Assembly (NCBI GenBank): GCA_965247095.1
Contig: OZ251997.1
Coordinates: 928,001 to 992,000, forward strand
Direction of reading: 5' to 3'
Length of the DNA stretch: 64,000 nt
Source: Candidatus Multivorans sp.
Lineage (GTDB): Bacteria > Acidobacteriota > Thermoanaerobaculia > Multivoradales > Multivoraceae
The position numbers were made by a program, and so were the translations under genes. Every line of letters begins with the position of its first letter. The first letter of the stretch is position 1. Positions 29,125-48,952 of this stretch are shown one piece after another. The notes under the pieces were generated by a model. It did not search any database and was not told the origin of the DNA. It worked only from the letters and a program-made list of their open reading frames with translations.

Positions 29125-31386
29125 ATGGGTCTGCTGGCGCCTCTCTTCCTGCTCGGCCTGGCCGCGGTCGCGGTGCCGGTGATCATCCACATGCGTCTGC
29201 GTCACCGTAGTCAGGTGGTCGCGTTCCCGTCCCTGATGTTCATCTCCAGGGCGCCCTACCGATCCGTTCGCCGGCGCCGTCTGCGCGATCTGCTGCTTCT
29301 GGCTCTGCGCTGCCTGGCGCTGGCGCTCCTGGCTGTGGCCTTTGCTCGGCCTCTGTTTCAGGGCGACGGGGCGGCCAACGCCGCCGCCGCCAACCGGCTG
29401 ACCGTCGTGCTGCTGGACAACTCGTTCAGCATGGGCTTCGGCGACAGGTGGCAGCGAGGCACGACGGCGGCGGCTTCGGCGTTTGACGGGCTGGGTACGG
29501 GAGATCGCGGCGCCCTGATCGTCTACTCGGATCGGGCGGAGATGCTGAGTGCGCCGACATCGGACGGATCCCTGCTGGCGACCCTGGCGAGGGAGGCGGA
29601 ACTGGTTCCCCGCGCCACGTCGCTGCTGCCCGCGATTCAGGTGGCCCGTGGGGTGCTCGCGGACGCGGGAAGCCTCGCCGTGAGGGAGCTCGTGATCGTC
29701 AGCGACCTCCAGCGTTCGTCTTGGGCGCCCGACAACGCGGCGTTGTTGCCCCAGGGCGTCGAACTGCGTCTGGTCGATGTCCGTTCGGAGGAGGAGGACC
29801 GGGGCAATGCCGCCGTCACCGACGTGGTGCTCGATCACTCTCGCGTGTCTTCCTCCGAGTCCGGAGGGGGCGCGCGGGAACAGGTGGGCATCGCGGCGCG
29901 CGTCAGCTACCAGAGTGTCGGCGGAGCAGCCGACGAGGATGGAGCAGCCGCGACCCTGCGGGCGGAAGTCGACCTGCTCTTCGACGGAGAGGTCATCCAG
30001 ACCCGGGCTGTGGAACTGCCGCTCGACTCCTCGACCATGGTCAATTTCGCGCCCGAGGTCCTGGAGCGGGAGCGCACCACCCGGGGCACGGTGCGGCTCC
30101 GGGAGGACGCTCTGGATACCGACAACGAGTTCCACTTCGTGCTGTCTCCCGCGCACGAAGTCGGAGTGCTGGTCATCGAGCCCGGGGGTGACCGGCGGCG
30201 CGGCCGCTACCTCGAGGAGGCGCTGTCGCTCGGCCGCCGTCCGTTCCTGCGGGTGAACAGAGTCCAGGCTTCCGGTTTTGAGCCGACGATGCTGGAAGGC
30301 AAGTCCGTCGTCGTGATCAACGACGCGGCGCAGCAGCTCCCCTCCGCGGCCGTCGCGGCGGTCCTCCGCTTCGTCCGTGAAGGGGGCGGCCTGCTGCTCG
30401 GGGTCGAGCGCGGCCTGAACTCGACTTCGGCTCTGCTCGGGGAGTTCGGGGTCGAAAGCTCGCAGCAGGTGGACCGGTTGTCCGGCACGCCCGGTTCTCT
30501 GGCCTGGTTCGACACCGGCCACCCGGTCTTCGACGTCTTCGCCACGGCGCGGAGCGGGGACTTCTCGTCGGCGTCGTTCTTCCGCTACCACCGCCTGGAG
30601 ACACCCGAAGGGGCGCTTCCGATCGCCCTTTTCGACGACGGCTCGCCGGCTCTGCTCGACCTGATGCCCGCGGTGTCGGAGGACTCGGCCTCGGGGGCCG
30701 TCGACGGCAAGGGCGGGCGCGTGCTGGTGTTGCCCACGTCGTTCGACACCTTCTGGAACACCCTGCCGCTGCAGGCGGTGTTCGTTCCCTTCGTGCATCG
30801 TTCGGCGCAGTACCTGGCCGGCTACTCGTTGCCCCGTTCGTGGTACCGCGTCGGCGAGGTCGCCTCGGTCGAGTTGCCCGGACCGGCGGGAGGCGAGGGC
30901 GACGGCTACATCTCGGTCGCTCCGTCCGGCCGCGAGCGCCGCCTCGGCACAGGTGGAAGCGATCTTCTGCTCGATGTGGAGGAGCCGGGCTTCTACGACT
31001 TTCGCGAAGTGCGGGCGGACGTTACAGCCCAGCGTCTGACACTTGCGGCCAACGTGCCGGTGTTGGAGTCGGACCTGGGCGCACTCGACCTCGACGAGTT
31101 CATGTCCCGAATCAGACCCGACCAGGCTGAAGACGCAGCGGCCGACCTGGAGAGCGCTACAACACCCGAAGAGCGGGAGGGGCGGCAGCGCCTCTGGTGG
31201 TATCTGATCGCCGCGGCGGCGGTGGTTCTGGCCGCCGAGGGCCTGTTCGGGAACCGTCGGCGGGCGGCTGCGACGCCGATCGTGACAGCATGGAGTTCCA
31301 TCCCCGCGCCCGATGACGGGCACGGGGACTGGTTCACGGTTCGCGCGGGGACGCGCCAACCGGGTTCCACCGGCGGGGAGACGTGA
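29125..31386 (+). CDS. BatA N-terminal domain + VWA + GATase-like membrane protein
   Basis: LFLLGLAAVAVPVIIH...FPSLMF...LLLALR..A...FARP, LLDNSFSM MIDAS, SDLQ, DN, ESDL and a C-terminal TM helix. Confidence 0.85.
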   Translation: MGLLAPLFLLGLAAVAVPVIIHMRLRHRSQVVAFPSLMFISRAPYRSVRRRRLRDLLLLALRCLALALLAVAFARPLFQGDGAANAAAANRLTVVLLDNSFSMGFGDRWQRGTTAAASAFDGLGTGDRGALIVYSDRAEMLSAPTSDGSLLATLAREAELVPRATSLLPAIQVARGVLADAGSLAVRELVIVSDLQRSSWAPDNAALLPQGVELRLVDVRSEEEDRGNAAVTDVVLDHSRVSSSESGGGAREQVGIAARVSYQSVGGAADEDGAAATLRAEVDLLFDGEVIQTRAVELPLDSSTMVNFAPEVLERERTTRGTVRLREDALDTDNEFHFVLSPAHEVGVLVIEPGGDRRRGRYLEEALSLGRRPFLRVNRVQASGFEPTMLEGKSVVVINDAAQQLPSAAVAAVLRFVREGGGLLLGVERGLNSTSALLGEFGVESSQQVDRLSGTPGSLAWFDTGHPVFDVFATARSGDFSSASFFRYHRLETPEGALPIALFDDGSPALLDLMPAVSEDSASGAVDGKGGRVLVLPTSFDTFWNTLPLQAVFVPFVHRSAQYLAGYSLPRSWYRVGEVASVELPGPAGGEGDGYISVAPSGRERRLGTGGSDLLLDVEEPGFYDFREVRADVTAQRLTLAANVPVLESDLGALDLDEFMSRIRPDQAEDAAADLESATTPEEREGRQRLWWYLIAAAAVVLAAEGLFGNRRRAAATPIVTAWSSIPAPDDGHGDWFTVRAGTRQPGSTGGET
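31298..31368 (+). repeat. Two-hairpin ~70 bp repeat, copy A (inside the BatA CDS, in frame)
   Basis: CCATCCCCGCGCCCG-ATGA-CGGGCACGGGGA-CTGGTTCA-CGGTTCGCGCG-GGGA-CGCGCCAACCG-GGTTCC; aligns with 48846..48915 (+) and 36693..36765 (-). Confidence 0.8.
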
Positions 31387-34300
31387 TGGCAGCCAGCTTC
31401 GATCCCATCTACGACCCGACCTACGGCGAACTGATGAGCGTGATCCGGCGCGTGCGCGCGCGCTGGCGCGTGAAGGTGGCCTTGCGCGGCCTCGTCATGG
31501 TGGCGGTGGCCGGATTCGTCGCCTTTGCGATGTCCGTATGGGGCATGGACTACTTCCTCTACAGCGAGCGGGCTGTCCAGATCTTCCGCTGGCTCACCTA
31601 TGTGGCCCTGATCGGGCTTGCCGTTCGGCTGTTGGTGGCGCCCCTGGTTCAGCGGGTGTCCAAGCAGCAGGTGGCGCTCTACGTCGAAGAGCACGAGCCG
31701 ACGCTCCGGGCCTCGGTCCTGAGCGCGGTCGAACTCGGACCGGTGCAGCACGGTTCGCCCCGCGATACGGAGCGGGTATCGCCCGAGCTCCAGCGGCGGG
31801 TCCTGGAAGAAGCGATCGAGCGCTGCCAGAACAGCGGCTTTGCTTCCCGCATCGAGCGTGGATCGCTGCGCCGCTTCTCGGCAGCCCTGGCGGGAGTGGC
31901 GGGCGCGGGCATGGCCGCGGTCCTGCTCAGCCCCGCTTTCCTGCAACACGGCGCCATGCTGCTGTTCGCGCCCTGGCGGGCGGCGGCGGCGGACAATCCC
32001 TACCAGTTGCGGGTGGGGCCGGGCAACGTGACCGTGGCGCGTGGATCGGACCAGTTGATCAGCGCGGCCGTCCTGGGCTTCGATCCGGAGCGGGTTGAGG
32101 TCGGACTCCGCCCACTGGATGCGAGCGGCAACGCCCAGGGCGACTGGCAGCAGTGGCCCATGAACCGCGTGAACGCCGAGATCGACCTCGACGCCGATCT
32201 GATGATCGGCGATGTGCGGGCCAGCCACGACTTCATTGCCCTGAACCTGCGCGCCGACACGGACTACTACGTCGACGCGTCCGGCGTGCGCTCGCCGATC
32301 TACCGCATCCGGGTCAAGGATCTGCCCTACGTGGAGCAGATCGACCTGGAGTACAGGTTCCCGGCGTACAGCGGTCTGTCCGACCGGACGGTCGAAGACG
32401 GCGGAGACATCGCCGTGCTCGAGGGCACGGAGGTCCTGTTCGGCATCCTGCCGATCTTCGAGGTGCCGGAAGGACGGCTTCTGATCGAGGGCGAGGAGCC
32501 GATCGACCTCAGTGCCGGAAGCGAAAGGCTGTCGGCCGCCTACACGATCAGCGGCAATACGTACTACCGCATCGAGTTGATGGACGACGAGGGCCGGTGG
32601 CGCCGGGCTTCGGCGGAATACATGATCACCGCGCTCGAGGATCAGCCGCCGATCGTCCGTTTCACCAGTCCCGGCCGGGACATCCAGGTGACGCTGGTCG
32701 ATGAAGTGTTCGCCCAGGTGGAGGCCGAGGACGACTACGGTGTGAGTCGTCTGGGCATTCGCTACACGGTGAACGGCGGCGAGGAGACCGCGCTGAACCT
32801 TGTGGACAGCCGCTCCGCGATGAAGAAGGTCAGCGCCGGGCATACGTTCTTCCTGGAGGAGATGGATTTGCAAGTAGGGGATTCGATCTCCTACTACGCC
32901 GAGGCCTGGGATCGCGGGCGCTCGAAGCCTGTGGTCAGCGACATCTACTTCCTGGAGATCAGGCCCTTCGATCGGAACTACAAGCAGGCCGAGCAGGGCG
33001 GCGGCGGCATGGGTGGCGCCGGCGGTTTCGACAACACGCTGTCGGTGCAGCAGAAGATGATCGTCTCGGCCACCTTCCGGCTGGTCAGGGACGCGGAGGA
33101 GTACAGCCGCCAGGAACTGTCCGAGAACCTGACCACGATCGCCCTGATGCAGGAACGGCTGCGGGAGCAGGTGGGCTCGCTGATCACGCGGATGGGCAAC
33201 CGCGGCCAGCAGTTGCTCGGGGACGAGGAGTTCTCCACGATCATCGAGTTCCTTCAACAGGCGGGCACGGAGATGGCAGCCGCCCAAGGGGAACTCGAGG
33301 CGGAGCGGCCCGACGAGGCGATGCCGGTGGAGAAGCAGGCCCTGGCCTCGCTGCAGCGAGCGGAATCGGCGTTTCGCGAACTGACGGTTTCGTTCCAGCA
33401 GGGCGGCGGCGGTGGCGGCGGCGGAAACCAGCAGCTATCGGAGGACCTCGCCGATCTGTTCGAGCTGGAGCTCGACAAGCTGCGCAACCAGTACGAGACG
33501 GTCCAGCGCGGCGCCGCCGAGCAGGCGCAGGCCGAGATCGACGAATTGATGCAGAAGTTGCGCGAGCTGGCCCGCCGTCAGCAGCGCGAGAACGAACGCC
33601 AGAACCGGCTGCGCGGCCGGCAGCAGCAGGGCGGCGGCGGCGGCGGCGGTCAGCAGCAACTGATCGACGAGACCGAGGAGTTGGCGAGGCGGCTGGAACG
33701 GTTGGCGCGTGAGCAGCAGCGTTCGGAACTCCAGCAGACGACCCAGGCGTTGCGGGAGGCCGTCGAGCAGATGCAGCGCTCACAGGCCGGCTCCTCCGGT
33801 TCGCAGTCGAGTGCCGGGGCGCAGGGGCTCGCGGCCCTGGACAAGCTGCGCGATGCGCGCCGCCTGCTGGCCCGCAACCGCCGCCAGCAGCTCGGCCGGG
33901 ACATGGAGGAACTGCAGCAGCGCGCCGAGCGGGTGTCGCAGATGCAGAGCCGGATCGAGGAGCAGGTCGAAGAGCTGGCGGGTCAGGAGGGCGATGACGG
34001 CCGGCGACGGAGCGGCCTCACGGCGCAGGAACGTTCGGAGTTGATCGAGCGGATCATGGAGCGCAAGGATCGCTTGACCGATGAGGTGGGCGGCCTGGAA
34101 GCCCAGCTCAACCGGATGACGAGGAGCGCCCGCGAGGAGCAGCCGGAGGCGGCGCGCAAGCTGCAGGCGTCGGCGGACGTGATTCGGGACGAGCAGTTGA
34201 AGGAGAAGATCCGCTACTCGAAGGGTGTGCTGGCGGGCCGTGACGCGGAGTTTGCGCGCCTGTTCGAGGGTCAGATCCGCCAGGACATCGACGAGGTGAC

Positions 34301-35045
34301 CGAGCGGATTGCCGAAGCACGGGAGAGCGTCGGTGAAGGGGGAAGCGATCGCCAGGACCGGATGCTCGAGCAGACTCGCGATCTGGTCGAGAACCTGTCT
34401 TCTTTCGAGGCCCGTCTACGTGACCGGGCCGAGGCCGGCGCCAGGCTTGGCCAGAGTCCCGGTCAACGAGGCGAACAGGAGGGCGGCGAGCAGCCGGGCG
34501 GCGACCAACAAGACGGCGACCAACAAGGCGGTGAGCAGCAGGGCGGCCAGCAGCAGGGCGGCAGTCAACAGGGCGGTCAGCCGGGAGATGCCTCAGAGAG
34601 CGGCGGCGCGCGCAACCGGGACGGCGGCGCAAGGAACTGGGGTCGTCCCAACCAGTACGGATCGAGCTCGGGCGGCTGGTACCAGCCCGGCATCTTCACC
34701 GCCGAGGACCTGCGCCAGGCTGAACGTGAGTTCGATCAGCGGCAGCAGGACCTCGAGGCCTTGAGAGGCGAGCTCCGACGCGAACGGATGGACACCGCCG
34801 ACCTGGATCAGCTCCTGCGCCAGATGGGCGATCTGAACCTGCTCGGGCTCAACCGGGATCCCCTCGCCCTCGAGTCCCTCCGCCGCGACATCGTCGAAGG
34901 GCTCCGGCAGTTCGAATACCGTCTGTGGCGCGATCTGCGCGGCGCCGACACCGAACGCGTCTACCAGGGCAATTCCGACCAGGTCCCGGCCGGCTACCGC
35001 GAACTCGTCGACGAGTACTTCCGCAAGCTCGCCAACGAGAGTTAG
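31383..35045 (+). CDS. Large membrane-anchored Ig-like/coiled-coil protein (DUF4175-like)
   Basis: N-terminal TMs, D.PP.V.F..PGRD, AEDDYG, YYAEA.D, long Q/E coiled coils, C-terminal VPAGYRELVDEYFRKLA. Confidence 0.78.
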   Translation: MMAASFDPIYDPTYGELMSVIRRVRARWRVKVALRGLVMVAVAGFVAFAMSVWGMDYFLYSERAVQIFRWLTYVALIGLAVRLLVAPLVQRVSKQQVALYVEEHEPTLRASVLSAVELGPVQHGSPRDTERVSPELQRRVLEEAIERCQNSGFASRIERGSLRRFSAALAGVAGAGMAAVLLSPAFLQHGAMLLFAPWRAAAADNPYQLRVGPGNVTVARGSDQLISAAVLGFDPERVEVGLRPLDASGNAQGDWQQWPMNRVNAEIDLDADLMIGDVRASHDFIALNLRADTDYYVDASGVRSPIYRIRVKDLPYVEQIDLEYRFPAYSGLSDRTVEDGGDIAVLEGTEVLFGILPIFEVPEGRLLIEGEEPIDLSAGSERLSAAYTISGNTYYRIELMDDEGRWRRASAEYMITALEDQPPIVRFTSPGRDIQVTLVDEVFAQVEAEDDYGVSRLGIRYTVNGGEETALNLVDSRSAMKKVSAGHTFFLEEMDLQVGDSISYYAEAWDRGRSKPVVSDIYFLEIRPFDRNYKQAEQGGGGMGGAGGFDNTLSVQQKMIVSATFRLVRDAEEYSRQELSENLTTIALMQERLREQVGSLITRMGNRGQQLLGDEEFSTIIEFLQQAGTEMAAAQGELEAERPDEAMPVEKQALASLQRAESAFRELTVSFQQGGGGGGGGNQQLSEDLADLFELELDKLRNQYETVQRGAAEQAQAEIDELMQKLRELARRQQRENERQNRLRGRQQQGGGGGGGQQQLIDETEELARRLERLAREQQRSELQQTTQALREAVEQMQRSQAGSSGSQSSAGAQGLAALDKLRDARRLLARNRRQQLGRDMEELQQRAERVSQMQSRIEEQVEELAGQEGDDGRRRSGLTAQERSELIERIMERKDRLTDEVGGLEAQLNRMTRSAREEQPEAARKLQASADVIRDEQLKEKIRYSKGVLAGRDAEFARLFEGQIRQDIDEVTERIAEARESVGEGGSDRQDRMLEQTRDLVENLSSFEARLRDRAEAGARLGQSPGQRGEQEGGEQPGGDQQDGDQQGGEQQGGQQQGGSQQGGQPGDASESGGARNRDGGARNWGRPNQYGSSSGGWYQPGIFTAEDLRQAEREFDQRQQDLEALRGELRRERMDTADLDQLLRQMGDLNLLGLNRDPLALESLRRDIVEGLRQFEYRLWRDLRGADTERVYQGNSDQVPAGYRELVDEYFRKLANES
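34461..34586 (+). repeat. Degenerate 15-nt coding tandem repeat (GG-E/D/Q-QQ pentapeptides)
   Basis: Encodes GQRGEQEGGEQPGGDQQDGDQQGGEQQGGQQQGGSQQGGQPG. Confidence 0.7.
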
Positions 35046-35090
35046 CGCCTGCGCGGGCTGGATGGCGCCTCGCCGCTGGGGGGGCAGACC

Positions 35091-35555
35091 TCAGGGCCGC
35101 TCCTTGAACAGGACGTGAACCGCGAAAGCTCTCCGGTCCCAGATGTCGGTGGTCTCGAAGTTCCTGACCGTGGTTCGTGCGTCCTCGATCCTGTCCAGGA
35201 CATCGGACTTGAAGAACGTCGTAGAAGGGTCGTAGTCGGCATGGCGCCGTTCGCGCTGAAGGTCTGCAAAGAGGTTCGCGAAGCGCCGTATTCGAGCGGG
35301 GAACATCCGCATCGTCCCGGTCCGCCCGCATGCACTCCTGGCCCGGCCATGGTCGAGCGCTCGGTAGGTCAGCTTCCAGGCATGTGTCATGCGGGCGTTC
35401 TTTCCGACCAGTGAGTCCGCGCAGCACCTCGCCAAACAGTGGAACAGCGCGTAGTACGCCGTGCTCACGGCGCGACGCAGATGCGTCTGCAACGGCCGCC
35501 CCGTACCGGCAGGAAGCTGCTGCTCCGCCGAGGCCAGGAGGTCAGATGCCTTCAG
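35091..35555 (-). CDS. HEPN-domain protein (putative toxin), probable CTG start
   Basis: LRRAVSTAYYALFH and LQRERRHADYDP motifs. The frame extends upstream of the tracked start as (L/M)KASDLLASAEQQL, with GGAG 9 nt before the CTG at 35555. Confidence 0.75.
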   Translation of the reverse strand: MKASDLLASAEQQLPAGTGRPLQTHLRRAVSTAYYALFHCLARCCADSLVGKNARMTHAWKLTYRALDHGRARSACGRTGTMRMFPARIRRFANLFADLQRERRHADYDPSTTFFKSDVLDRIEDARTTVRNFETTDIWDRRAFAVHVLFKERP

Positions 35556-35898
35556 GGCGCCAATCTCCGATGTCCGTCTTTGTAACGAAGTGCGTGCTGG
35601 GAAACACCTTCAGACGCCGGTCCCAGAGCGCGTCCTGAACCCGCGTGCGGAAGGAAAGCCTCGCCCGGGTATGGATCAGATCGGCCGCCTCGGCATCGTA
35701 GACGGCCCAGATGTCTACGACTTCGTCGCCGTACCAGGACCGGTCGGGCCGGACCCAAATGTCGATGAAGCGGACCTGCGGGAAGATCTCCTGGATGAGA
35801 CGGTCGACATCGTCCCTGACGTGGGGCAGTTCTTCCCGGAGACGTCGGCTGATCTCGTCGTAGGTGCTTACGTTCATTGGGGCCGAGTTCTCTTGCAT
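35542..35898 (-). CDS. Small acidic protein, putative antitoxin (degenerate nucleotidyltransferase-like)
   Basis: 118 aa, overlaps the HEPN start; AAAGGGG RBS; DIWV...GDEVVDIWAVYD...FP.THF pattern; no canonical GSxxxG. Confidence 0.55.
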   Translation of the reverse strand: MQENSAPMNVSTYDEISRRLREELPHVRDDVDRLIQEIFPQVRFIDIWVRPDRSWYGDEVVDIWAVYDAEAADLIHTRARLSFRTRVQDALWDRRLKVFPSTHFVTKTDIGDWRPEGI

Positions 35899-36085
35899 GA
35901 TGCACCCCTTTGAGGAGAGGCTAGCCTACTGATCTAGACGGATTCCGCCCTTGCGTTTGCGACGCCTTACCGATGGCACGACCGTGTACGTAAGGCCAGG
36001 GCGGGCGTTCTATGTTCCGCACGCATTCACTTCGCGGCGAAGGACGGTGGAGAGGGTGGCGCTAGTGAGAGGTCGCGTCCGATTC

Positions 36086-36319
36086 CTAGTGCAGCCTGGA
36101 CGCCGCTCTCTTCGTGCAGAGCGGCAGAAGGATCGCGTACGCCACGCCCTGCCATACCGCTGGGAGGCCGAGCGCCAAGCCGGAACTCCGGTCGTAGAGC
36201 ATGCACGTGAGCAGGACCGCCGTCGAGCCGATGAATACGGCGCCCGAGGCGAAGAGCAGGGGCGTTCGGCGAATCGTCCAGACCGGCTCGATCCGGTCCG
36301 CCTTCTGACGGTGTGGCAT
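36086..36319 (-). CDS. Possible small two-TM membrane protein
   Basis: MPHRQKAD...LLFASGAVFIGSTAVLLTCML...LALGLPAVWQGVAYAILLPLC has two hydrophobic segments; no recognised family. Confidence 0.3.
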   Translation of the reverse strand: MPHRQKADRIEPVWTIRRTPLLFASGAVFIGSTAVLLTCMLYDRSSGLALGLPAVWQGVAYAILLPLCTKRAASRLH

Positions 36320-36408
36320 CTCCAAGTCCTCCGCGCTTCTGCCCAAGGGATTCGCGACCGTGATTGTAGCGACCGTGAGTGCCCGAACGCGAAGGCTAGG
36401 ATTCCGGC

Positions 36409-36807
36409 ATGGTCGAGAAGGACGCGATGGTCGAGGAACTGACTCGAGTCCTGGACAAGGTGGCCGGGAAGTCGAGATTCAGGAGCGGAGGAAGACGCTG
36501 CCGAACTGGCCGCGTCATCAGGGCGTTGCTGGTGGAGTCCGAGTGGGGCGACGAGCACGAGATCTTTGACGACTTCGAGAAGCTGCTGTTGTGCCGTGCG
36601 GACCTCCGACTGATGATCTTGAACCGTGACGTCCAGCCGGCCCGGCCCGGGGAGTGGAGTGAGCGCCGACTCTCCAACCTCCGACCAAGTGCGAACCCGG
36701 GTGGCGCGATCCGCACCACCCGTGAACCAGTCCGTGCGCCCGTCAGCGGGCGCACGGATGGCACGGCCCTTGGGACACTCCCCTCCGCTCTCCGGGCCGG
36801 CGGGTGA
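36409..36807 (+). pseudogene. Remnant of a PD-(D/E)XK-like hypothetical gene
   Basis: LLVESEWGDEHEIFDDFEKLLLCRADLRLMI resembles a restriction-endonuclease-fold hypothetical family (from recall). Flanking translation is non-protein-like and runs into a repeat copy. Confidence 0.4.
36693..36765 (-). repeat. Two-hairpin ~70 bp repeat, copy C
   Basis: Reverse complement: CGTGCCATCCGTGCGCCCG-CTGA-CGGGCGCACGGA-CTGGTTCA-CGGGTGGTGCG-GAT-CGCGCCACCCG-GGTTC. Confidence 0.88.
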
Positions 36808-36861
36808 GCCCCGGCGGCGTGCCGAAGCCTCGTGCAGCGTCGGGACGCTGCGGTCGTTTCC

Positions 36862-39215: not shown

Positions 39216-39292
39216 CGCTGCTCCTGAACGTCTGTCTTGGTCTGTTTTGGAACGCGGAGTGTAGCAGCGGCGTCGTGAACTCCGAGCCGTAC

Positions 39293-40045: not shown

Positions 40046-40058
40046 GGACCGCCGGGTT

Positions 40059-41387
40059 TCAGTCCGCCGGCGACTTGTAGACAGTCCCCGCCTTCATCAC
40101 GAAGCGAACATCCTGAAGCTGGGTCACGTCCGCGATCGGGTCGCCCTCAACCGCGATCAGGTCGGCCGCCTTGCCGGCCGCGACCGAGCCGGTCTCGTCC
40201 CAGATCCCGAGCAGCTTTGCGGTGACGACCGTCGCCGACTGGAGCGCCGCCATGGGCGCCATGCCGCCTTCGACCATGAGCAGGAACTCGCGCGCGTTGC
40301 TGCCGTGCGGGCAGACGCCGCAATCCGTGCCGAAGGCGATCGGTACGCCGGCGCGGTGCGCCTTGGCGAACGTGTCCTGGATGACCGGCCCGATCGCCGC
40401 TGCCTTGGGCCGGATGATCTCGGGGAAGTACCCGGGGATCGCCGCCTTCTCGGCGACGAAGTTGCCGGCCAGGATCGTCGGCACGAAGTAGGTCCCGTGC
40501 TCTTTCATCAGCTCGAACGCCTCTTCGTCCATGTAGGTGCCGTGCTCGATCGTCGTCACGCCGGCCCGGATCGCGCGCTTCATGCCCTCGGCGCCGTGGG
40601 CGTGAGCGGCGACCATGAAACCGTAGTCCTTCGCGGTGTCGACGATGGACCGGATCTCCTCCTCGGTGAACTGCGGGTTCCGGCCGCTCTTGGCCAGACT
40701 GAGGACACCGCCGGTGGCGGTGATCTTGATCAGGTCGGCGCCTTCCTTGTAGCGCTGCCGGACCGCCTTGCGGGCGTCTTCGATGCCGTTGACGATGCCC
40801 TGCTTGGGGCCGGGGTCGCCCTGAAGATCGGCGCGCATGCCGTTGGTCCGGTCGGCGTGGCCTCCGGTCGTGGCCAGAGAGGTGGTGGCGGCGAAGATCC
40901 GTGGCCCCGGCATCTCGCCCTGGTTGATCGCGTTACGGACCGCGAGGATCGCGGTCGCCTCGCCGCCCAGATCGCGGACGGTCGTGAAGCCGGCGAGAAG
41001 AGTTCTCTCCGCGTAGATCAGGGTCTGGACGGTCACGTCCGCGGGGTTTGCCTGGAAGCGCTCCAGGTATGAAGCGGCGCCCGCCTGCTGGGACGTCAGG
41101 TGGACGTGCATGTCCATCAGGCCGGGCAGGACAGTGTGCCCGGAGAGGTCGATCAGGGTGTCGCCCTCTTCCGGGGCGGTGAAGCCTTCCTCGACCGTGA
41201 CGATGTTCTCGCCCTCGACCAGGATGGATCGCTTGCCTACGACCGCGCCGGCCGCAACGTCGACGAGGGCGCCGGCGTGGATCACGGTGCGGCCTTCTGC
41301 GGCGAGGCCGCTGGACGGCCCGAGCAGCAGGAGGGCGGCCAAGGAGAGGAAGGTGGCTGCGCGAAGCAGGAAAGGTCGGTTGTTCAT
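40059..41387 (-). CDS. Secreted amidohydrolase (Xaa-Pro dipeptidase-like)
   Basis: Signal peptide; [40 protein letters not shown] and GKAADLIAV motifs. Confidence 0.92.
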
Positions 41388-41483
41388 CGTCGGCAAGCTC
41401 CGGGAGTTGAGTCGTAGCGGGCGCCGGGACTGTAACGCAGGGCCGGTCGGCACGATTGCCGGCGGCACGGCGCCGCTCCGCTT

Positions 41484-42404
41484 TCAGCGGGCGTCCTCGC
41501 GCCGGGCGGAGGTTGAGGAACCTACGCGGCTGATGGCCCAGGTCAGGACGAAGCCGGCGCCGGCGATTCCCACGGCGGAACCGGCCTGGAGCGGGGCGGG
41601 ACCGAAGCCCTCGAAGGGCCAGAGACCGACGACGGCGCCCAGGAGAAGGCCGAGGAGTACGCCGAGTGTCGCCTGCCGGAACCGGTGCAGGGCCAGACGC
41701 ACCGCGTTGCTGATCACCGTAGCGCCGACGGCGATACCGATCAGGACCGGCAGCAGAACGCCGGCCGCCTCGACCAGGGCCCCGGCGTCACGGTCCCTGA
41801 GCGCCTGCAGCAGCCCGTCGACGGCACCGAGGATCGGTACGTACTGACCGAGGACGAGGAGCAGATAGCCGCCGCTCAGGCCCGGCAGGATCATGGCCGC
41901 GGCACCGGCCGCTCCGGCGATGGCGAGAAGAAGCGGCCCGTTGCCGCTGGCGCCGGCGGCGGTTGAATCGCTCTGCAGCAGGGCGAGGGCCGCCATGGCG
42001 GCGAACCCGCCCGCGGCGCCGCCCCACACGGCGCGGCCGACCGGTTGGGCGAGGCGCCACACCAGGGGCACGCCGCCCAGGGTCAGGCCGATGAAGGCGC
42101 TGTACATGATCCACTGGTGGTGAACCACGAGGTCGCCCAGCGTGCCGGCGAGCAGCAGGATGGCCAGCCCGCCGGATGCCGCCACCACGATCAGCAGCAG
42201 GAGCGGCTGAAGCCGGAACCGCAGCCGGGTCGTGTCCGCCACCGCCTCGATGAAGCGGGGATAGATCCCGACCGCCAGCAGCATCGTGCCGCCGCTGATC
42301 CCGGGCACCAGGTTCGCCAGGCCCATCAACGCGCCGCCCGCCAGTGCGCGCGGCGCCCAGGAAGCGCCTCCCGCTACGTTCGACCTGCTTGCTTTCGCGG
42401 CCAT
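41484..42404 (-). CDS. DUF368 family membrane protein (putative undecaprenyl-phosphate translocase)
   Basis: Twin motifs GLANLVPGISGGT and AMILPGLSGG; multiple TMs. Confidence 0.88.
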   Translation of the reverse strand: MAAKASRSNVAGGASWAPRALAGGALMGLANLVPGISGGTMLLAVGIYPRFIEAVADTTRLRFRLQPLLLLIVVAASGGLAILLLAGTLGDLVVHHQWIMYSAFIGLTLGGVPLVWRLAQPVGRAVWGGAAGGFAAMAALALLQSDSTAAGASGNGPLLLAIAGAAGAAAMILPGLSGGYLLLVLGQYVPILGAVDGLLQALRDRDAGALVEAAGVLLPVLIGIAVGATVISNAVRLALHRFRQATLGVLLGLLLGAVVGLWPFEGFGPAPLQAGSAVGIAGAGFVLTWAISRVGSSTSARREDAR

Positions 42405-42475
42405 CGGGTCGGAGTCTACGGGCGCTCCGCGGGCAGGGGTCGGTTTTCGTTGCGGATTCGTCTACCGTTACGCCG

Positions 42476-43870
42476 ATGACGGACTACGACTACGACCTGT
42501 TTGTGATCGGCGCAGGTTCGGGCGGTGTGCGCGCCGCCCGGATGGCTGCCGGCTACGGCGCGCGGGTGGCAATCGCCGAGGCCCGCCACCTGGGCGGCAC
42601 GTGTGTGAACGTCGGCTGCGTGCCGAAGAAGCTCCTCGTCTGTGCGTCGGCCTTTGCCGACCACTACCGCGAAGCTTCTGGATTCGGCTGGACCACGGGA
42701 CCTTCCGCGTTCGACTGGGCGCGTCTCGTCGCCAACAAGGACCGGGAGATCGAGCGTCTGAACGGAATCTACCGCGGGCTGCTCGAAGGCGCAGGTGTGG
42801 AAATCTTCGAGGGTAGGGCGCGTCTGGTCGACGCGGACAGGGTGGAGATCGATCTCGGCAACCGGATGCGGCGCCAGGTCGGCGCCAAGAACATCCTGGT
42901 GGCGACCGGAAGCTGGCCTCACCGGCCGCAGATCCCCGGCATCGAGTACGCCATCACCTCGAACGATGCCTTCCACCTGAAGCGTCTGCCGGAGCGCTTC
43001 GCGGTGGTCGGGGGCGGCTACATCGGCGTCGAGTTCGCCGGCATCCTGGCCGGGCTCGGGTGCCAGGTCACCCTGATCTACCGCGGCGAACTCTTCCTAC
43101 GCGGCTTCGACGAGGAGATTCGCCGCCATCTCGCCGACGAGATGCGGTCGCGCGGAATCGACCTGCGGTTCGGCTGCGAGGTCGAGGCGATCGAGTGGAT
43201 CGGGCCGGGGCCGTCCGGCAACGGCGTCGGCGGGTCGGGCGGCGACCGTCTCCTGCTTCGGCTCACAGGCGGCGTCGAGTTGCGGTCCGGCGAGGCGCTC
43301 TTCGCGACCGGCCGCAGTCCCGAGGTCGTGGGGCTGGGGCTCGAGGACTGCGGCGTCGCCCTGCGTGAGAACGGCGCGGTGCGGGTCGACGAGCTCTCGC
43401 GCACGAACGTTCCGAACATCTGGGCGATCGGCGACGTGACGGACCGCCTGAACCTGACCCCGGTGGCGATCCACGAGGGCATGTGCCTGGCTCGGACGCT
43501 GTTTGCCGGCGAGCCGACAGCGGTGGACCACGAGACCGTCGCTACCGCCGTCTTCAGCCAACCGCCCCTGGCCGCGGTCGGTCTGACCGAGGAGGAGGCG
43601 AGGGAGCGGTACGGCGAGGTCGATGTCTACCGCAGCCGATTCCGGCCGCTCAAGTTGACCCTGACCGACAACCAGGAACGGACCCTGGTCAAGCTGATGG
43701 TTGAGCGTTCGGGCGGGCGCGTCCTCGGCGCCCACATGCTCGGCGCCGACGCACCCGAGATCATCCAGGGCCTCGCCGTGGCCGTGAAGATGGGCGCCAC
43801 CAAGAACGACTTCGACGCCGCAATGGCGATCCATCCGACCTCCGCCGAGGAGTTCGTCACCCTGCGGTGA
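42476..43870 (+). CDS. gor: Glutathione-disulfide reductase
   Basis: YDYDLFVIGAGSGGVRAAR, GGTCVNVGCVPKK, GGGYIGVEFA, NLTPVAI and IHPTSAEEFVTLR motifs. Confidence 0.95.
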   Translation: MTDYDYDLFVIGAGSGGVRAARMAAGYGARVAIAEARHLGGTCVNVGCVPKKLLVCASAFADHYREASGFGWTTGPSAFDWARLVANKDREIERLNGIYRGLLEGAGVEIFEGRARLVDADRVEIDLGNRMRRQVGAKNILVATGSWPHRPQIPGIEYAITSNDAFHLKRLPERFAVVGGGYIGVEFAGILAGLGCQVTLIYRGELFLRGFDEEIRRHLADEMRSRGIDLRFGCEVEAIEWIGPGPSGNGVGGSGGDRLLLRLTGGVELRSGEALFATGRSPEVVGLGLEDCGVALRENGAVRVDELSRTNVPNIWAIGDVTDRLNLTPVAIHEGMCLARTLFAGEPTAVDHETVATAVFSQPPLAAVGLTEEEARERYGEVDVYRSRFRPLKLTLTDNQERTLVKLMVERSGGRVLGAHMLGADAPEIIQGLAVAVKMGATKNDFDAAMAIHPTSAEEFVTLR

Positions 43871-43882
43871 TCGAGTCGCGGG

Positions 43883-43907
43883 ATGCGCGGGCCTTCCGGC
43901 CCCGCAT
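43883..43907. terminator. Hairpin between convergent gor and gshB (REP-like, possible bidirectional terminator)
   Basis: ATGCG(C)GGGCC-TTCC-GGCCCCGCAT; no U-tract. Similar to GCGGGCA-GGA-TGCCCGC at 48826..48842. Confidence 0.4.
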
Positions 43908-43927
43908 TCGCCGCAGGCGGGCGCCGC

Positions 43928-44881
43928 TCAGGCCGTGGCGCGCCGCCGCTCGACGGCGTCGAGCACGTCGACCTCGAGGCGTGGACCGCCGAGGTCCGCG
44001 ATCTCGCGCAGGCCGGTCGGGCTGGTCACGTTGACCTCGGTCAGCCAACCGCCGATCACGTCGATGCCGGCAAAGACGATGCCCAGCCGGACCAGTTCCG
44101 GACCGACCGCGGCGGCGATCTCGCGGTCCCGGTCGTCGACCTTCGTGGCGGCAGGCTGGCCGCCGACGTGGAAGTTGGCTCGCGATTCGCCCTCTGCGGG
44201 CACGCGCAGCACCGCGCCGAGCGCTTCGCCTTCGACCAGGATGACCCGCTTGTCGCCCTGCCGGATCTCGGGCAGGTAGCGTTGCGCCATCAGGTAGCGG
44301 CTCTCGTGCGCGGTGGCCGTCTCGAGGATGGCGCTGGTGTTCCGGTCGCCGGCTTTCAGATGGAAGATGCCTTGGCCGCCGGCGCCGTCGAGTGGCTTGA
44401 CGATCATCTCGCCGCCCATCTCCTCCTGGAAGGCGAGCAGCTCCGGAATGCGGCGGGACACCCGCGCGGGTGGACACACTGCGGGGAAGCGGAGCGCGAA
44501 CAGCTTCTCGTTCGCGTCCCGCAGCGCCAGCGGGTCGTTCACGACCAGGGTGCTCTTCGCCACCATGGACAGCAGGTGGGTGGCGTAGAAGAAGGACATG
44601 TCGAAGGGTGGGTCCTTGCGCATCCAGACCACGTCGAACTCGTCGAGGAAGGCGGTTCGGCCGGTTCCGACCTCGTACCAGGCGCCGCCCTCGCCGGGGT
44701 CGACGGTCCGGGCGGGGACGGCTTCCGCCTGAGGCCGGCCGTCCGGCCCGAGGTCCAGCGTGTCCATCGTGCACACCGCGAGGTCGTGGCCGCGGCTGTC
44801 GGCCTCGCGCAGGAACGCGATGGTGGTGTCCTTCTCGGGATCCAGACGCTCGATCGGATCGATGACGAAGAGATGGCGCAT
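43928..44881 (-). CDS. gshB: Glutathione synthetase
   Basis: KDTT, WMRKDPPFD, NDP..LRDANEKL, KPLDG.GG, GDKR, RANFHVGG and EVNVTSPTG motifs. Confidence 0.96.
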   Translation of the reverse strand: MRHLFVIDPIERLDPEKDTTIAFLREADSRGHDLAVCTMDTLDLGPDGRPQAEAVPARTVDPGEGGAWYEVGTGRTAFLDEFDVVWMRKDPPFDMSFFYATHLLSMVAKSTLVVNDPLALRDANEKLFALRFPAVCPPARVSRRIPELLAFQEEMGGEMIVKPLDGAGGQGIFHLKAGDRNTSAILETATAHESRYLMAQRYLPEIRQGDKRVILVEGEALGAVLRVPAEGESRANFHVGGQPAATKVDDRDREIAAAVGPELVRLGIVFAGIDVIGGWLTEVNVTSPTGLREIADLGGPRLEVDVLDAVERRRATA

Positions 44882-44969
44882 GGCGGCGGCGGAGGATCGT
44901 AGCGGGCCGCGCAAGTTATCACGCGAGCGCATGGGAGCGTCCGCGCGCCGCCCTCTAGAATCCGGCGCT

Positions 44970-45542
44970 GTGGACCAAACCAGGCGACAGTGGATCTTCG
45001 GCTACGGCTCGCTGATCTTCCGGCCGGACATACCCTTCGTGGAGCGCCGGCGGGCGCTTCTGCGGGGTTGGGCGCGGCGCTTCTGGCAGTGGTCGACGGA
45101 CCACCGCGGCGAGCCGTGGCGTCCCGGCCGGGTCGTCACCCTGGCGCCGTCACCGGAGGAGGGCTGTTGGGGCGTCGCCTACCGGCTCGACGAGGCCCGG
45201 GCGGACAGGATCCTCGACGACCTGGACGTGCGGGAACGGGGCGGCTACGTCCGCATGGAGGTCGAACTCGAGTTGGACGGGGTGGAACGGGTGTTCGGCG
45301 TGACCTACCAGGCCTGGCCCGGCAACCGGAACTACGCCGGCCCGGCTCCATTGGCCGAAATCGCCGGTCAGGTCGTATCGGCAACGGGTCCCAGCGGCGC
45401 CAACGCCGACTACGTGCGCGATCTCGACGCCGCGCTGCGGGCAATGTCCGCGGAAGACGGCCATACGGTCGAACTGGCCGCCGAAGTGAGGGCGCTGCTT
45501 GCGGGGCCCCCGGGCGCGGTCAGGGCGCCATCGCCCCGGTGA
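44970..45542 (+). CDS. chaC: Glutathione-specific gamma-glutamylcyclotransferase (ChaC)
   Basis: WIFGYGSL, RRFWQ.STDHRG, PGRVVTL, LD.RE.GGY and GPSGANADY motifs. Confidence 0.92.
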   Translation: MDQTRRQWIFGYGSLIFRPDIPFVERRRALLRGWARRFWQWSTDHRGEPWRPGRVVTLAPSPEEGCWGVAYRLDEARADRILDDLDVRERGGYVRMEVELELDGVERVFGVTYQAWPGNRNYAGPAPLAEIAGQVVSATGPSGANADYVRDLDAALRAMSAEDGHTVELAAEVRALLAGPPGAVRAPSPR

Positions 45543-47151
45543 CACCGACTTCCCGCCCCTGCGGGTCGATCAGGACCCCCGGGTTCATCAGGCCGTCCGG
45601 GTCGACGGCCGCCTTGGCGCCGGCCAGGGCGCGTGCGAAGACCTCTGGCCGCTGACGGTCGTAGCCGTTCGGCCGGTGATCGCGTCCCACGGCGTGGTGG
45701 TGCGTCACCGTGCCGCCGGCCTCGACCACGGCCTCGTTGGCAGCCAGCTTGATCTCGCGCCACTGGTCGGCGAGCCGTTCCCAGTCGCCGAGCGCGGAGA
45801 AGGTGAAGTACGGCGCGGGTCCGTCGGGGTAGACGTGGGTGAAGCGGCAGGTGACGCGGCCGGGCCGGCCGGTCGCCTGCTCGAGGATCTCGGCGGTCCC
45901 AGCCGTGATCCGGGCGTGGAAGTCGGCGAAGCGGTCCCAGGTCACGGCAGTCTCGAAGGTGTCGCCGATCACACCCAGGGGCACGCCCACTTCGCGGAAG
46001 TAGGGCCCCTTGATGAAGGCGTCGCGCCAGGCCCCGGCTGCTCCTTCACGGTGGGAGCCGCCGGCGGAGGTGCTGTGATCGCCGCCGCAGTCCGCGGTCA
46101 GTTCGAGCGCTCGCCTGAGCCAGGCGTCGACCGGGTGATCGGCAGACTCGAATCCCAGCACGAGAAGCGACGTCGTGCCGTCGCCGGCGCCCGCATCGCC
46201 AGTCTCCTGGGCGTCGATCAGCCGGCAGTTCGAGGGGTAGAGGCCGCTCTGGGAGAGCATTCGCACCGCTTCCACGGCGCTGGCGTAGTCGGCGAAATGG
46301 ACCGCTGCCGAGCCGCGGTGGACGGGGCGATCCTGAAGCCGCATCCAGGCCTCGGTGATCACACCGAGGATGCCTTCCGAGCCGATGACCATCCGGTCCG
46401 GCGACGGTCCGGCGCCGGAACCGGGCAACCGTCGCGTTTCCATCACCCCCTGGGGCGTCACCGTGGTCGTCGCCTCGACGAAGTCGTCGATGTGGGTGTA
46501 GAGGCTGGCGAAGTGCCCGCCGGAACGGGTCGCGATCCATCCGCCGAGGGTGGAATGCTCGAAGCTCTGCGGAAAGTGGCGGAGCGTCAGCCCGTGCTCG
46601 CGGAGCTGCGCTTCCAGGCCGGGGCCGCGGGTGCCGCCCTGGATCCGCGCGGCACGGCTGGCGCGATCGACCTCGAGCACCTGGTCGAGCTTGAGCAGAT
46701 CGATCGTGACCGCGCCGGCGTAGCTGCCGCCGACCGCCGGTTCGACGCCGCCGACCACGCTCGAGCCGCCGCCGAAGGGGATCACGGCGGCGCCGGAGTC
46801 GCCGGCCCAATCGAGGATCCTGACCACGTCCTCCGTCGTCTCCGGATAGGCGACAAGGTCCGGGGGTTCCGTCACCTCGCGCCGGAACATCCGCACCGCA
46901 TCCGGGAAGGACTTGCCGTAGGCGTGAAGAAGCCGTTCGTACGGGTCGTCGCGAAACAGGGCCGCGAGCGAGGAGGGTGGCCGCAGCCGCGGCGGGCGCA
47001 GGTCGAAGTCCGCGGCCTGCGGCGCCGCCGCCCGCGGTTCGACCGGGGTACCGAAGCGCTCCGCGGTGCGGGCGCGGAACGCGTCCGCCTCCGCCGGCGT
47101 GAGTCCCTGCCCTTCGTAACCCCAACCACAGAGCTTGCGTTGTGACGTCAC
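45520..47151 (-). CDS. FAD-binding oxidoreductase (alkyl-DHAP synthase-like)
   Basis: PFGGGSSVVGG, HFPQSFEHSTLGGWIATRSGG, GSEG.LGVITE, THVYPDG and HHHAVG motifs. Confidence 0.88.
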   Translation of the reverse strand: MTSQRKLCGWGYEGQGLTPAEADAFRARTAERFGTPVEPRAAAPQAADFDLRPPRLRPPSSLAALFRDDPYERLLHAYGKSFPDAVRMFRREVTEPPDLVAYPETTEDVVRILDWAGDSGAAVIPFGGGSSVVGGVEPAVGGSYAGAVTIDLLKLDQVLEVDRASRAARIQGGTRGPGLEAQLREHGLTLRHFPQSFEHSTLGGWIATRSGGHFASLYTHIDDFVEATTTVTPQGVMETRRLPGSGAGPSPDRMVIGSEGILGVITEAWMRLQDRPVHRGSAAVHFADYASAVEAVRMLSQSGLYPSNCRLIDAQETGDAGAGDGTTSLLVLGFESADHPVDAWLRRALELTADCGGDHSTSAGGSHREGAAGAWRDAFIKGPYFREVGVPLGVIGDTFETAVTWDRFADFHARITAGTAEILEQATGRPGRVTCRFTHVYPDGPAPYFTFSALGDWERLADQWREIKLAANEAVVEAGGTVTHHHAVGRDHRPNGYDRQRPEVFARALAGAKAAVDPDGLMNPGVLIDPQGREVGVTGAMAP

Positions 47152-47223
47152 CGGAACCTCCTTCAGGTCGCGCAGGATAGCCGAGGAGGTGCGATGGCGG
47201 CTGCCGATCTAGAATGCCCGTTC

Positions 47224-48798
47224 ATGTCCTGGCAGCCCGAGGTCGACGAGATCGAACGCCGCCGGCGCCTGGCGCTGGCGATGGGCGGCGAGAAGGCGGT
47301 GGCGCGGCAGCACGAACGCGGCCGGCTGACCGTGCGCGAACGGATCGAGCGGGTCGCCGATCCGGGGTCCTTCATCGAGGAGGGCCGGCAGGCGGGGGCG
47401 GCCGAAGTGGACGGGGAAGGCCGCGTCGTCGCGTTCACGCCGGCGAACTACGTCGTCGGTTTTGCCGACGTGGATGGCCGGCGGTTGATCGTGGCGGGCG
47501 AGGACTTTACCCAGGCCGGGGGTTCGCCGTCGCCGGCCGGTCTGCGCAAGAGCGTCTACTCGGAGGAACTCGCGCTCAAGTACCGGTTGCCGCTGCTGCG
47601 GTTCCTCGAGGGCGGCGGCGGCAGCGTCCGCGGCAGCGGCGGTCGGGTCAAGGGGGCGCCGAAGAAGCCGCCGCGGCCGATGGGTGAGCCTGTCTATTCG
47701 CGGGCCCGTTTCTGGTCGATTGCCGAGATCCTGCGGACGGTGCCGGTGGCCTCGATCGGAGTCGGAGCGGTGGCGGGATTCCCCGCGGCGCGCCTCGTCG
47801 CGTCCCACTTCTCGGTGATGACGCGGCACACGGCGCAGATCCTGATCGGCGGCCCGGCGCTGGTCGAGCGGGCCCTGGGCGAGAAGAAGACGAAGGACGA
47901 GCTGGGCGGATGGCGGGTCCACAGCCGGAGCGGCGTCGTCGACAACGTGGCCGAGGACGAGGACGACGCGATGGAGCAGGTTCGCCGCTTCCTGAGCTAC
48001 CTGCCGCCGAACGTCGACTCGCTGCCGCCGCGTCGTTCCATCGGCGATCCGGCGGATCGGCGCGAGGAGCGACTGCTGTCCATCCTGCCGCGCGACCGCC
48101 GCTTCCTCTACGACATGCGCGAACTGATCTCCCTGGTCGTCGACCGGGACAGCTTCTTCGAGATGACCGCGGGCTACGGGCCGTCCCAGGTCACCGGTCT
48201 GGCGCGCGTCGACGGCTACACGGTCGGCGTGATCGCCAACGACTGCCGGCACATCGGCGGCGCGATGGACGCCGCCGGGGCGCAGAAGTTCCGGCGCTTC
48301 GTCGAGTTGTGCGAGACCTTCCACCTGCCGATCCTGAGCCTGGTCGACGAGCCCGGCTTCATGATCGGTTCGGAGTCGGAGGCATCCGGCACGATCCGCT
48401 ACGGCATGGAGGCGATCGCGGCGACCGTGCGGTCGACCGTGCCCTGGTGCGCTGTCCAGATCCGAAAGGCCTACGGCGTCGCCGCCGCGGCCCACTTCGG
48501 GCCGGGCGGCCGGGTGCTGATCTGGCCGTCGGCGGAGAGCGGCGCGCTGCCGATCGAGGGCGGGGTGGCGGTCGCCTTCCGGCGCGAGATCGCGGCGGCG
48601 CCGGACCCGGACAGGAAACGGGCCGAACTCGAGGCCGAGTTCGCCAAGCGCCGTACTCCCTTCCCGCGTGCCGAGGGGTTCTCGGTCCACGACCTGATCG
48701 ACCCACGGAGCACCCGCGCCGAAGTCGTCAAGTGGTTGAAACTGTCCGGGGCCCTACTCGCGGCCAGGGTGGCGGGGCGAAGCGGAGGAACGATTTGA
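47224..48798 (+). CDS. Acyl-CoA carboxylase carboxyltransferase subunit
   Basis: AMGG...VARQH..GRLTVRERI, DFT..GGS, IGGP.LV, LVDEPGFMIG, RKAYG and IDPRSTR motifs. Confidence 0.9.
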   Translation: MSWQPEVDEIERRRRLALAMGGEKAVARQHERGRLTVRERIERVADPGSFIEEGRQAGAAEVDGEGRVVAFTPANYVVGFADVDGRRLIVAGEDFTQAGGSPSPAGLRKSVYSEELALKYRLPLLRFLEGGGGSVRGSGGRVKGAPKKPPRPMGEPVYSRARFWSIAEILRTVPVASIGVGAVAGFPAARLVASHFSVMTRHTAQILIGGPALVERALGEKKTKDELGGWRVHSRSGVVDNVAEDEDDAMEQVRRFLSYLPPNVDSLPPRRSIGDPADRREERLLSILPRDRRFLYDMRELISLVVDRDSFFEMTAGYGPSQVTGLARVDGYTVGVIANDCRHIGGAMDAAGAQKFRRFVELCETFHLPILSLVDEPGFMIGSESEASGTIRYGMEAIAATVRSTVPWCAVQIRKAYGVAAAAHFGPGGRVLIWPSAESGALPIEGGVAVAFRREIAAAPDPDRKRAELEAEFAKRRTPFPRAEGFSVHDLIDPRSTRAEVVKWLKLSGALLAARVAGRSGGTI

Positions 48799-48845
48799 GT
48801 GGGCGGCGAGAAACGGAAACCGGATGCGGGCAGGATGCCCGCGTG

Positions 48846-48915
48846 CCATCCGTGCGCCCGATGACGGGCGCACGGAGTGGTTCGCGTGTGGCGCGGGTCG
48901 CGCCACACGGGTTCC
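48846..48915 (+). repeat. Two-hairpin ~70 bp repeat, copy B (intergenic)
   Basis: CCATCCGTGCGCCCG-ATGA-CGGGCGCACGGA-GTGGTTCG-CGTGTGGCGCG-GGT-CGCGCCACACG-GGTTCC; both stems are perfect (12 and 11 bp). Confidence 0.88.
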
Positions 48916-48952
48916 CAGGCCGGATGTGGGCGCAGCGCCCGAGGAGAGATAG

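Follow-up and report, generated by a model that had tools for sequence, protein, structure and literature searches.

The 64,000-nt stretch of Candidatus Multivorans sp. DNA considered here (positions 928,001 to 992,000 of contig OZ251997.1, assembly GCA_965247095.1; called the window below) carries three copies of a short repeat built of two hairpins. The family to which they belong is, in our judgement, almost certainly a mobile DNA element. Its mobile unit comprises 68 or 69 nt and is inserted without target duplication at the sequence NT|TS, mostly GT|TC, the bar marking the junction. The favored explanation of its spread, held with modest confidence, is the action in trans of a single-tyrosine (Y1) histidine-hydrophobic-histidine (HUH) enzyme of the type associated with repetitive extragenic palindromes (REPs), a REP-associated tyrosine transposase (RAYT), working by a single-strand mechanism and accompanied by hitchhiking of the element on REPs.

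The first-pass annotation had described copies at 31298 (+), 36693 (−) and 48846 (+), here called A, B and C, and all three were confirmed at these positions and on these strands. In the six folds of the three copies on both strands the z score ranged from −5.0 to −9.1, and none of 200 shuffles was as stable. The sequences given for stem 2 were right and their assignment was not: CGGGT/ACCCG belongs to the copy at 36693 and CGTGT/ACACG to that at 48846, the labels B and C having been exchanged. The pairing of the stems is kept overall, as had been claimed, apart from one mismatch in each stem of copy A. The supposed invariance of GGTTC turned out to be a property of the three window copies only: of 149 copies, 108 have GTTC as their terminal tetramer, and several diverged copies from distant species have TGAC, GGAC or CGAC as the middle motif.

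A profile made from the three window copies gave 159 matches at E<=1e-5 in the 4.6-Mb genome (G000), and the refined profile found 160 non-overlapping copies at the same threshold, with 0 matches at E<=1 in the reversed genome. The first-pass annotation had made the family depend on further copies elsewhere in the genome, and these 160 supply them. Scanning with a covariance model, as it had proposed, gave matches in 40 of the 42 genus genomes, with 3 to more than 118 (a capped count) in each, and in none of 150 genomes drawn from the rest of the phylum. The two genus genomes without a match are G011 and G022, and G014 and G052 are nearly free of the element. An exact pattern matched 71 metagenome stretches and no viral contig, and BLAST returned nothing from plasmids or phages. 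The repeat had not been recognized as any described family, and Rfam indeed gave no match (in the window, 0 matches at the gathering score, the best E of 2.5 lying around copies B and C). No paper on this repeat family was found in the literature, a survey that did not extend to published REP catalogues (figures and supplements) or to a sequence-level search.

The compensatory changes in the stems also stood up. Among 58 aligned copies, 12 of the 26 pairs showed change on both sides and 95.3% of cells were paired; none of 500 shuffles, which ignore relatedness, scored as high, and structures slid along the alignment were paired in 30-45% of cells. A lone hairpin with exact ends at the middle GTTC was found 0 times among 331 doublets. 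One subfamily (G000:C1:292365, 292436, 2537278 and 3784434, and in genome G005) differs in hairpin 2, whose upper stem is unrelated and whose loop is long; the ends and the 69-nt length are unchanged. One copy lies just upstream of the start of a tRNA-like gene in two species (G000:C1:4039834 and G005:C14:32416); the two are only 79% alike, and the insertion is therefore old.

The ends of the unit were read from 150 full-length copies, of which 74 lie in one particular REP (REP1), 12 in five tandem arrays and 64 free. The core dinucleotide GT is present at the left end of 48 of the 64 free copies and at the right end of 61, and the two bases that follow the right GT are T in 57 and then C or G in 63. 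These counts assign the left GT and the terminal TC to the target and place the junction at NT|TS. Units in tandem are joined at the same GT. Hairpins are not enriched beside free targets, and two features of Class II miniature inverted-repeat transposable elements do not occur, as the ends of the unit do not pair with each other and no target is duplicated.

The junction was confirmed by empty sites in G055, a genome 97% identical to this one. Twenty windows picked as probably empty there comprised 21 copies with orthologous flanks, 3 of them filled and 18 unfilled in G055. Five of the 18 (C1:546004, 552421, 744287, 1945734 and 2742403) are clean junction pairs, in which the empty site reads GTTC or GTTT and the difference is the element length alone. 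One trimer accounts for a 207-bp difference (3 × 69) over a GCTC site, with GC on its left and GT on its right, and the remaining 12 sites show larger or ragged differences. A further orthologous pair, at C1:2269885, consists of a REP1 that is empty in G055 and filled in this genome. In windows not picked for emptiness, 14 of 26 G000 copies were common to both genomes. Because the empty orthologous sites fix the ends of the unit, the terminal TC that the first-pass annotation called invariant is target DNA. The fixed orientation, the lack of duplication and the origin of the left core in the target and of the right core in the element together suggest a single nick position and not a staggered double-strand exchange. 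Windows from genome G024 were mostly diverged intergenic DNA, and no orthologous site for copy B was returned.

Half of the full-length copies lie in one host repeat. REP1, at whose foot the 74 nested copies (of 150) lie, is the REP that brackets the only RAYT gene of the genome, and 116 of 261 REP1-like matches run empty through GT|TC. It is abundant (85-239 exact matches) only in 8 of the 42 genomes, those at least 91% identical to this one, and has at most 3 matches in the other 34. The bulge base is G in 58 of 74 REP1-nested copies and C in 64 of 77 free copies, a difference which indicates that the nested copies are largely one subfamily multiplied with its host. In other species of the genus the element occupies the loop of a second REP, REP2, which belongs to the RAYT common in the genus; counted by eye, about 19 of the 30 top copies taken from five genomes are placed in this way, and so are 50 of 60 distinct metagenome copies. 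Filled CTTC loops of REP2 have CT on the left and GT on the right. The boundaries of whole REP1 units were too ragged for a cut-site reading (7 usable rows).

The tag of REP1 is GGAA (locus L001, 1321-1405 and 2110-2283), whereas at the loci of RAYT relatives in other taxa it is mostly GGAG (43 loci vs 4 with GGAA); this change creates the target of the element. Copy B lies in a third host, family B, a longer purine-rich intergenic repeat that also harbors a member of the insertion sequence (IS) family IS110 (G000:C1:1494082-1497489), the second IS110 type of the genome. Five further family-B sites are at C1:289622, 1954505, 2416923, 3042032 and 3597983, and a related empty one (CTTC) lies upstream of an IS110 at C1:1495582. 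In the leader of the family-B IS110 four segments, judged by eye, match its own target and donor flanks in the manner of bridge RNA guides.

Some insertions lie within coding sequence. A BatA/VWA gene is lengthened at its end by 23 codons through copy A, which is present in G055 and absent from five more distant relatives, four of them exactly 69 bp shorter here and one 66 bp shorter. Seven of the 150 copies are clearly inside coding frames (both flanks in one continuous frame, score above 4), and each of the seven measures 66 or 69 nt, a length shared by 32 of 76 free copies (P about 0.002); with a stricter cut-off set beforehand (score above 6) the comparison was 3 vs 0 (P=0.07). One in-gene host is a prolyl oligopeptidase; judged by their motifs, two others look like GyrA and like a helicase of the UvrD type.

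The genome has a single Y1 gene (C1:2898169-2898813, − strand), a RAYT that scores 79.8-80.1 bits against a model cut-off of 80; the HUH motif is present in its product, together with a candidate for the catalytic tyrosine. REP1 arrays stand on both sides of this gene, each with one nested element. Of the flanking of a RAYT gene by clusters of the repeat, which the first-pass annotation proposed to look for, copies on both sides are what was observed, and they are nested in arrays of a different repeat, REP1. The adjoining gene (L001 33-1229) consists of two same-frame open reading frames (ORFs), split by an in-frame TAG at 591-593. Across the genus the element lies beside a RAYT in 4 of 30 loci, always nested in REP1 or REP2. 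The suggestion of a REP/REPIN-like family can therefore be kept in part: many copies, covariation, precise presence or absence and copies flanking the only RAYT are as expected of a REP-like mobile family, but the element is not a REPIN (REP doublet forming a hairpin), as the two hairpins are unlike and stand head-to-tail.

According to the mechanism we propose, the element would be non-autonomous and gene-less and would be moved as single-stranded DNA by a borrowed RAYT-type transposase. The enzyme would recognize the hairpins through the GAAC that stands, on the minus strand, at the 5' foot of each, and nick both feet after GT, and the excised piece would be joined into a matching nick. Nested copies would multiply passively whenever the host REP unit is copied or converted. 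The compensatory stem changes could arise from selection on copies that are still mobile and from template-switch correction of imperfect palindromes, so that an RNA function would not be needed.

One group 3 RAYT selects the cut dinucleotide by pairing with the tag (PMC8266576). The REP1 junction T|TCC falls within the complement of the GGAA tag, as the group 3 tag rule would predict, and the right end of the element has the same geometry. Single stem changes fall on plus-strand G and C in a ratio of 83:22 here and of 51:20 in an independent set of 106 copies. The excess is seen in inner as well as outer arms, and changes of G>A outnumber those of C>T in each of the five gene-context classes; this asymmetry fits a strand-specific intermediate.

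Several observations weigh against the RAYT-based mechanism. A RAYT between naked elements was met 0 times among 30 genus loci and 80 loci of related RAYTs elsewhere. A RAYT is present in 9 of 14 element-rich genomes and in 16 of 28 others, so copy number is not tracked, and none was detected in five genomes with at least 114 element matches. The G000-type RAYT is confined to 3 of 42 genomes (branch support 93/100) and abundant REP1 to 8, as against 40 with the element; relatives of this RAYT in other taxa mostly go with a GGAG tag and no element. The REP of the common genus RAYT has a GGTG tag, for which the tag rule predicts C|A and not T|T, and the commonest left junction, T|G (102 of 147), is unpredicted by the GGAA rule. 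Cleavage by the enzyme in vitro depends on a tagged REP in the strand being cut (PMC8266576), but the strand that carries T|T lacks a GAA tag, and REP1 is hardly ever found in inverse pairs (10 of 248 within 200 bp).

Irregular junctions are a second difficulty. Three copies show a duplication of the base that precedes GT, and in 10 of the 74 nested ones this base is donor-like. All 100 listed empty G-type REP2 loops of genome G047 (of 138) read GTCC and the filled ones end in GTTC, and the empty site of copy A is GCCC or ATCC in relatives. None of these is accounted for by a clean nick-and-join. The strand bias is also weak in the second set if distinct change types only are counted (29:19, P=0.09), and the copies are not independent; there is no replichore bias among free copies (30:34, with a rough estimate of the origin).

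The element may instead have its own mobilizer, a divergent HUH or other single-nick recombinase that escapes recognition and has perhaps been lost from most genomes, with RAYTs amplifying the element only passively once it has landed in a REP. It would then be an orphan 68-nt REP parasite, scarless at NT|TS, maintained across an entire genus and colonizing whichever REP the local RAYT amplifies. We consider this possible, though clearly less probable than a borrowed RAYT. The wider spread of the element than of REP1 and the G000-type RAYT, the tRNA-adjacent site common to G000 and G005, the lack of a tie between RAYT and copy number, and the entry under one NT|TS rule into two REPs at unlike positions (foot and loop) and into plain coding DNA all argue for it. 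A parent element was nevertheless not found: G000 holds no long element with these ends among the multi-copy segments and lone hairpin ends examined, and a pattern for the left end with another continuation gave 1 match in 42 genomes, a mutated ordinary copy. Nor is there a mobile-element enzyme among the 53 ORFs beside clustered or tandem copies, or a copy in the viral contigs, phages and plasmids searched.

The junctions irregular by one or two bases could also be a mark of movement with no dedicated enzyme, in which break repair would spread the copies through template switching at GT, primed by microhomology, and through gene conversion (homing) from one REP copy to another. The nested copies forming a subfamily and the many REP-associated differences between G000 and G055 that are larger, ragged indels agree with such a process. 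It is unlikely all the same, given the sharp fixed ends of free copies at 64 unrelated sites with a 4-nt consensus only, the absence among the 331 doublets of single-hairpin copies ending exactly at the middle GTTC, and the pairing of stems maintained across species.

The covariation, which exceeded both controls, would also be expected of a structured RNA, be it an mRNA element that acts in cis or a small retro-element with RNA as its copying intermediate, and reverse transcription could likewise give a strand-asymmetric mutation pattern. This option, raised in the first-pass annotation, found no support and is distinctly improbable. Besides the lack of an Rfam match, free copies show no preference for gene direction (21:20 relative to co-directional genes), unpaired mismatches occupy 94 cells against 52 and 17 for the wobble pairs of either strand, and the sole reverse-transcriptase match is weak and partial and falls in a locus resembling a diversity-generating retroelement (DGR).

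A miniature element of IS91 type (two-tyrosine, Y2, rolling-circle) or IS110 type (bridge RNA) is hardly credible: IS801 and IS1294 do have GTTC as their target and duplicate none of it (PMC13181058), insertion into REPs is known of IS110 members, and the genome contains three IS110 genes, but the junction here lies inside the tetramer and not beside it, free targets share only 4 nt, no Y2 gene was found in G000 and one weak match in the 42 genomes (G016), control genomes being silent too, and both IS110 leaders, by eye, match their own ends and targets and not both flanks of the element's junction. Two 7-mers shared with IS110 (one at the left end, the other in the other IS110 motif) were considered as a link and rejected, the opposite flank being without a match. 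A search for a GIY-YIG enzyme gave one match, a 645-aa frame of UvrC size with no link to the element.

Among known systems the element works most like REPs of the BIME (bacterial interspersed mosaic element) kind with their RAYTs or like the PATEs (palindrome-associated transposable elements), yet it fails a defining feature of each. With the REPs and RAYTs of E. coli and the REPtrons of Pseudomonas and Stenotrophomonas, as far as the excerpts of PMC3333891, PMC8266576 and PMC6006769 describe them, it shares short GC-rich hairpins with a 5'-foot motif on one strand, high copy number, covarying stems, tandem amplification and copies beside a single-copy RAYT. Junctions flank the palindromes in both, one of them in the complement of the tag, and both are mainly intergenic and taxon-restricted. 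It differs in its foot motif, GAAC and not GTAG/GTGG (a comparison that leaves aside the REP consensus figures), in its junction, T|T or T|G and not C|T, in flanking a RAYT only when nested in other REPs, and in consisting of two unlike hairpins head-to-tail with fixed ends and 68-69 nt, whereas a REP is a single palindrome of 20-50 nt. REPINs (PMC3116915) are likewise non-autonomous two-hairpin units in which the doublet is obligate for movement, but a REPIN is one REP present twice, inverted, with a variable spacer, and the element has non-homologous, co-oriented hairpins with a fixed 8-nt linker.

The CGTC-tagged REPs and the Rickettsia palindromic elements (RPEs) treated in the consulted part of PMC3733652 are orphan repeats without a dedicated transposase gene and have in-frame intragenic copies, as here, and a minority of left ends of the element read TGTCAT, like the CGTC tag. 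They have a single stem of 8-9 bp where the element has two, each of 11-12 bp; its tag is unconserved, and its CCA/TGG bases are paired and do not form a tail. PATEs, gene-less derivatives of IS200/IS605, resemble it in their two subterminal hairpins, fixed orientation, lack of duplication and presumed mobilization in trans; their target lies wholly 5' of the junction in the excerpted account (PMC10055086), whereas that of the element straddles it. No IS200/IS605 TnpA was found in the genome (TnpB was not searched for), nor any parent with the ends of the element. The IS91 family shares the GTTC target, the lack of duplication and subterminal palindromes, and differs in that the junction of the element is inside the tetramer and in that a Y2 transposase was not found by searches whose controls were silent (PMC13181058, in part). 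The IS110 module, its leaders judged by eye, is unlike the element in that a long target guided by bridge RNA contrasts with a target consensus of 4 nt only.

The class of phenomenon is already known. PMC3733652 and PMC6006769 describe REP families that are orphans, insertion of REPs into other palindromes and REPs that lie in frame. The present analysis adds the exact rule for the junction, the change of host from one REP to another, the narrower range of the adjacent RAYT compared with the element, and the strand bias. For the question of how REP-like repeats spread in vivo, the element offers fixed ends, a readable target and orthologous empty sites that REPs usually lack, together with the sharp prediction of nicks after GT at both hairpin feet. 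Here one selfish repeat rides on two others, and housekeeping proteins gain 22-23 residues from it. Should it prove to be an orphan, its partner would be a new small insertion enzyme needing less than 70 nt of cis sequence.

The features of the window that concern the element are collected in Table 1.

Table 1. The three copies of the element in the window with their hairpins, host gene and host repeats (position 1 is the first base of the window)
Feature	Position	Strand	Remarks
Copy A, 69-nt two-hairpin element, free insertion	31297..31365	+	in frame, last codons of BatA/VWA gene
Left core dinucleotide GT of copy A, followed by the junction	31295..31296	+	from the target, according to the rule for the family
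Hairpin 1 of copy A: 12-bp stem, 4-nt loop; CCA/TGG extension around a one-base bulge	31301..31328	+	
Hairpin 2 of copy A: 11-bp stem, end 3 nt before the right junction	31337..31362	+	
Host gene of copy A: BatA N-terminal and VWA protein, 753 aa	29125..31386	+	PF07584, PF13519
Copy B, 68-nt element, intergenic, behind acyl-CoA dehydrogenase gene	36695..36762	-	
Family B, host repeat of copy B, approximate limits	36640..36800	-	six filled copies in the genome share flanks
Copy C, 68-nt element nested in REP1	48845..48912	+	
REP1 hairpin (6-bp GC stem) and GT before the junction	48826..48844	+	tag GGAA-C on the - strand
Remainder of REP1 behind copy C	48913..48919	+	empty REP1 copies are continuous through GT|TC

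The short motif GACTGGTTC occurs in the window at chance level (17 vs 14.5 expected), and no tRNA was found there. In assembled contigs of public runs, close strains have 78 other bases in place of window positions 48762-48996 (REP1 and copy C), a replacement also seen in one RNA contig, and one close strain skips positions 35046-36861, which hold copy B; no 68/69-bp excision joint was present among the rows listed.

Other loci of the genome deserve a brief record. The DGR-like locus at G000:C1:4216155-4219454 has a gene whose terminal motif is found again behind a reverse-transcriptase frame, in an adenine-rich stretch resembling a template repeat; the reverse-transcriptase match is partial and below the cut-off, and the gene may be broken. 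Two IS110 copies (G000:C1:1057380-1058987 and 4033500-4035107) have the same 14-nt motif at both ends. If one mismatch is tolerated, this motif occurs 35 times in the genome, some of the occurrences surrounding short modules that have no gene; a portion of the motif recurs twice in the leader, resembling a modular ISPpu9-like system. Tandem repeats of about 88 bp at G000:C1:3276420-3277008 start like the reverse strand of a tRNA 3' end, and an open frame of more than 4,000 codons with internal repeats of about 109 residues extends over G000:C1:2150570-2163783.

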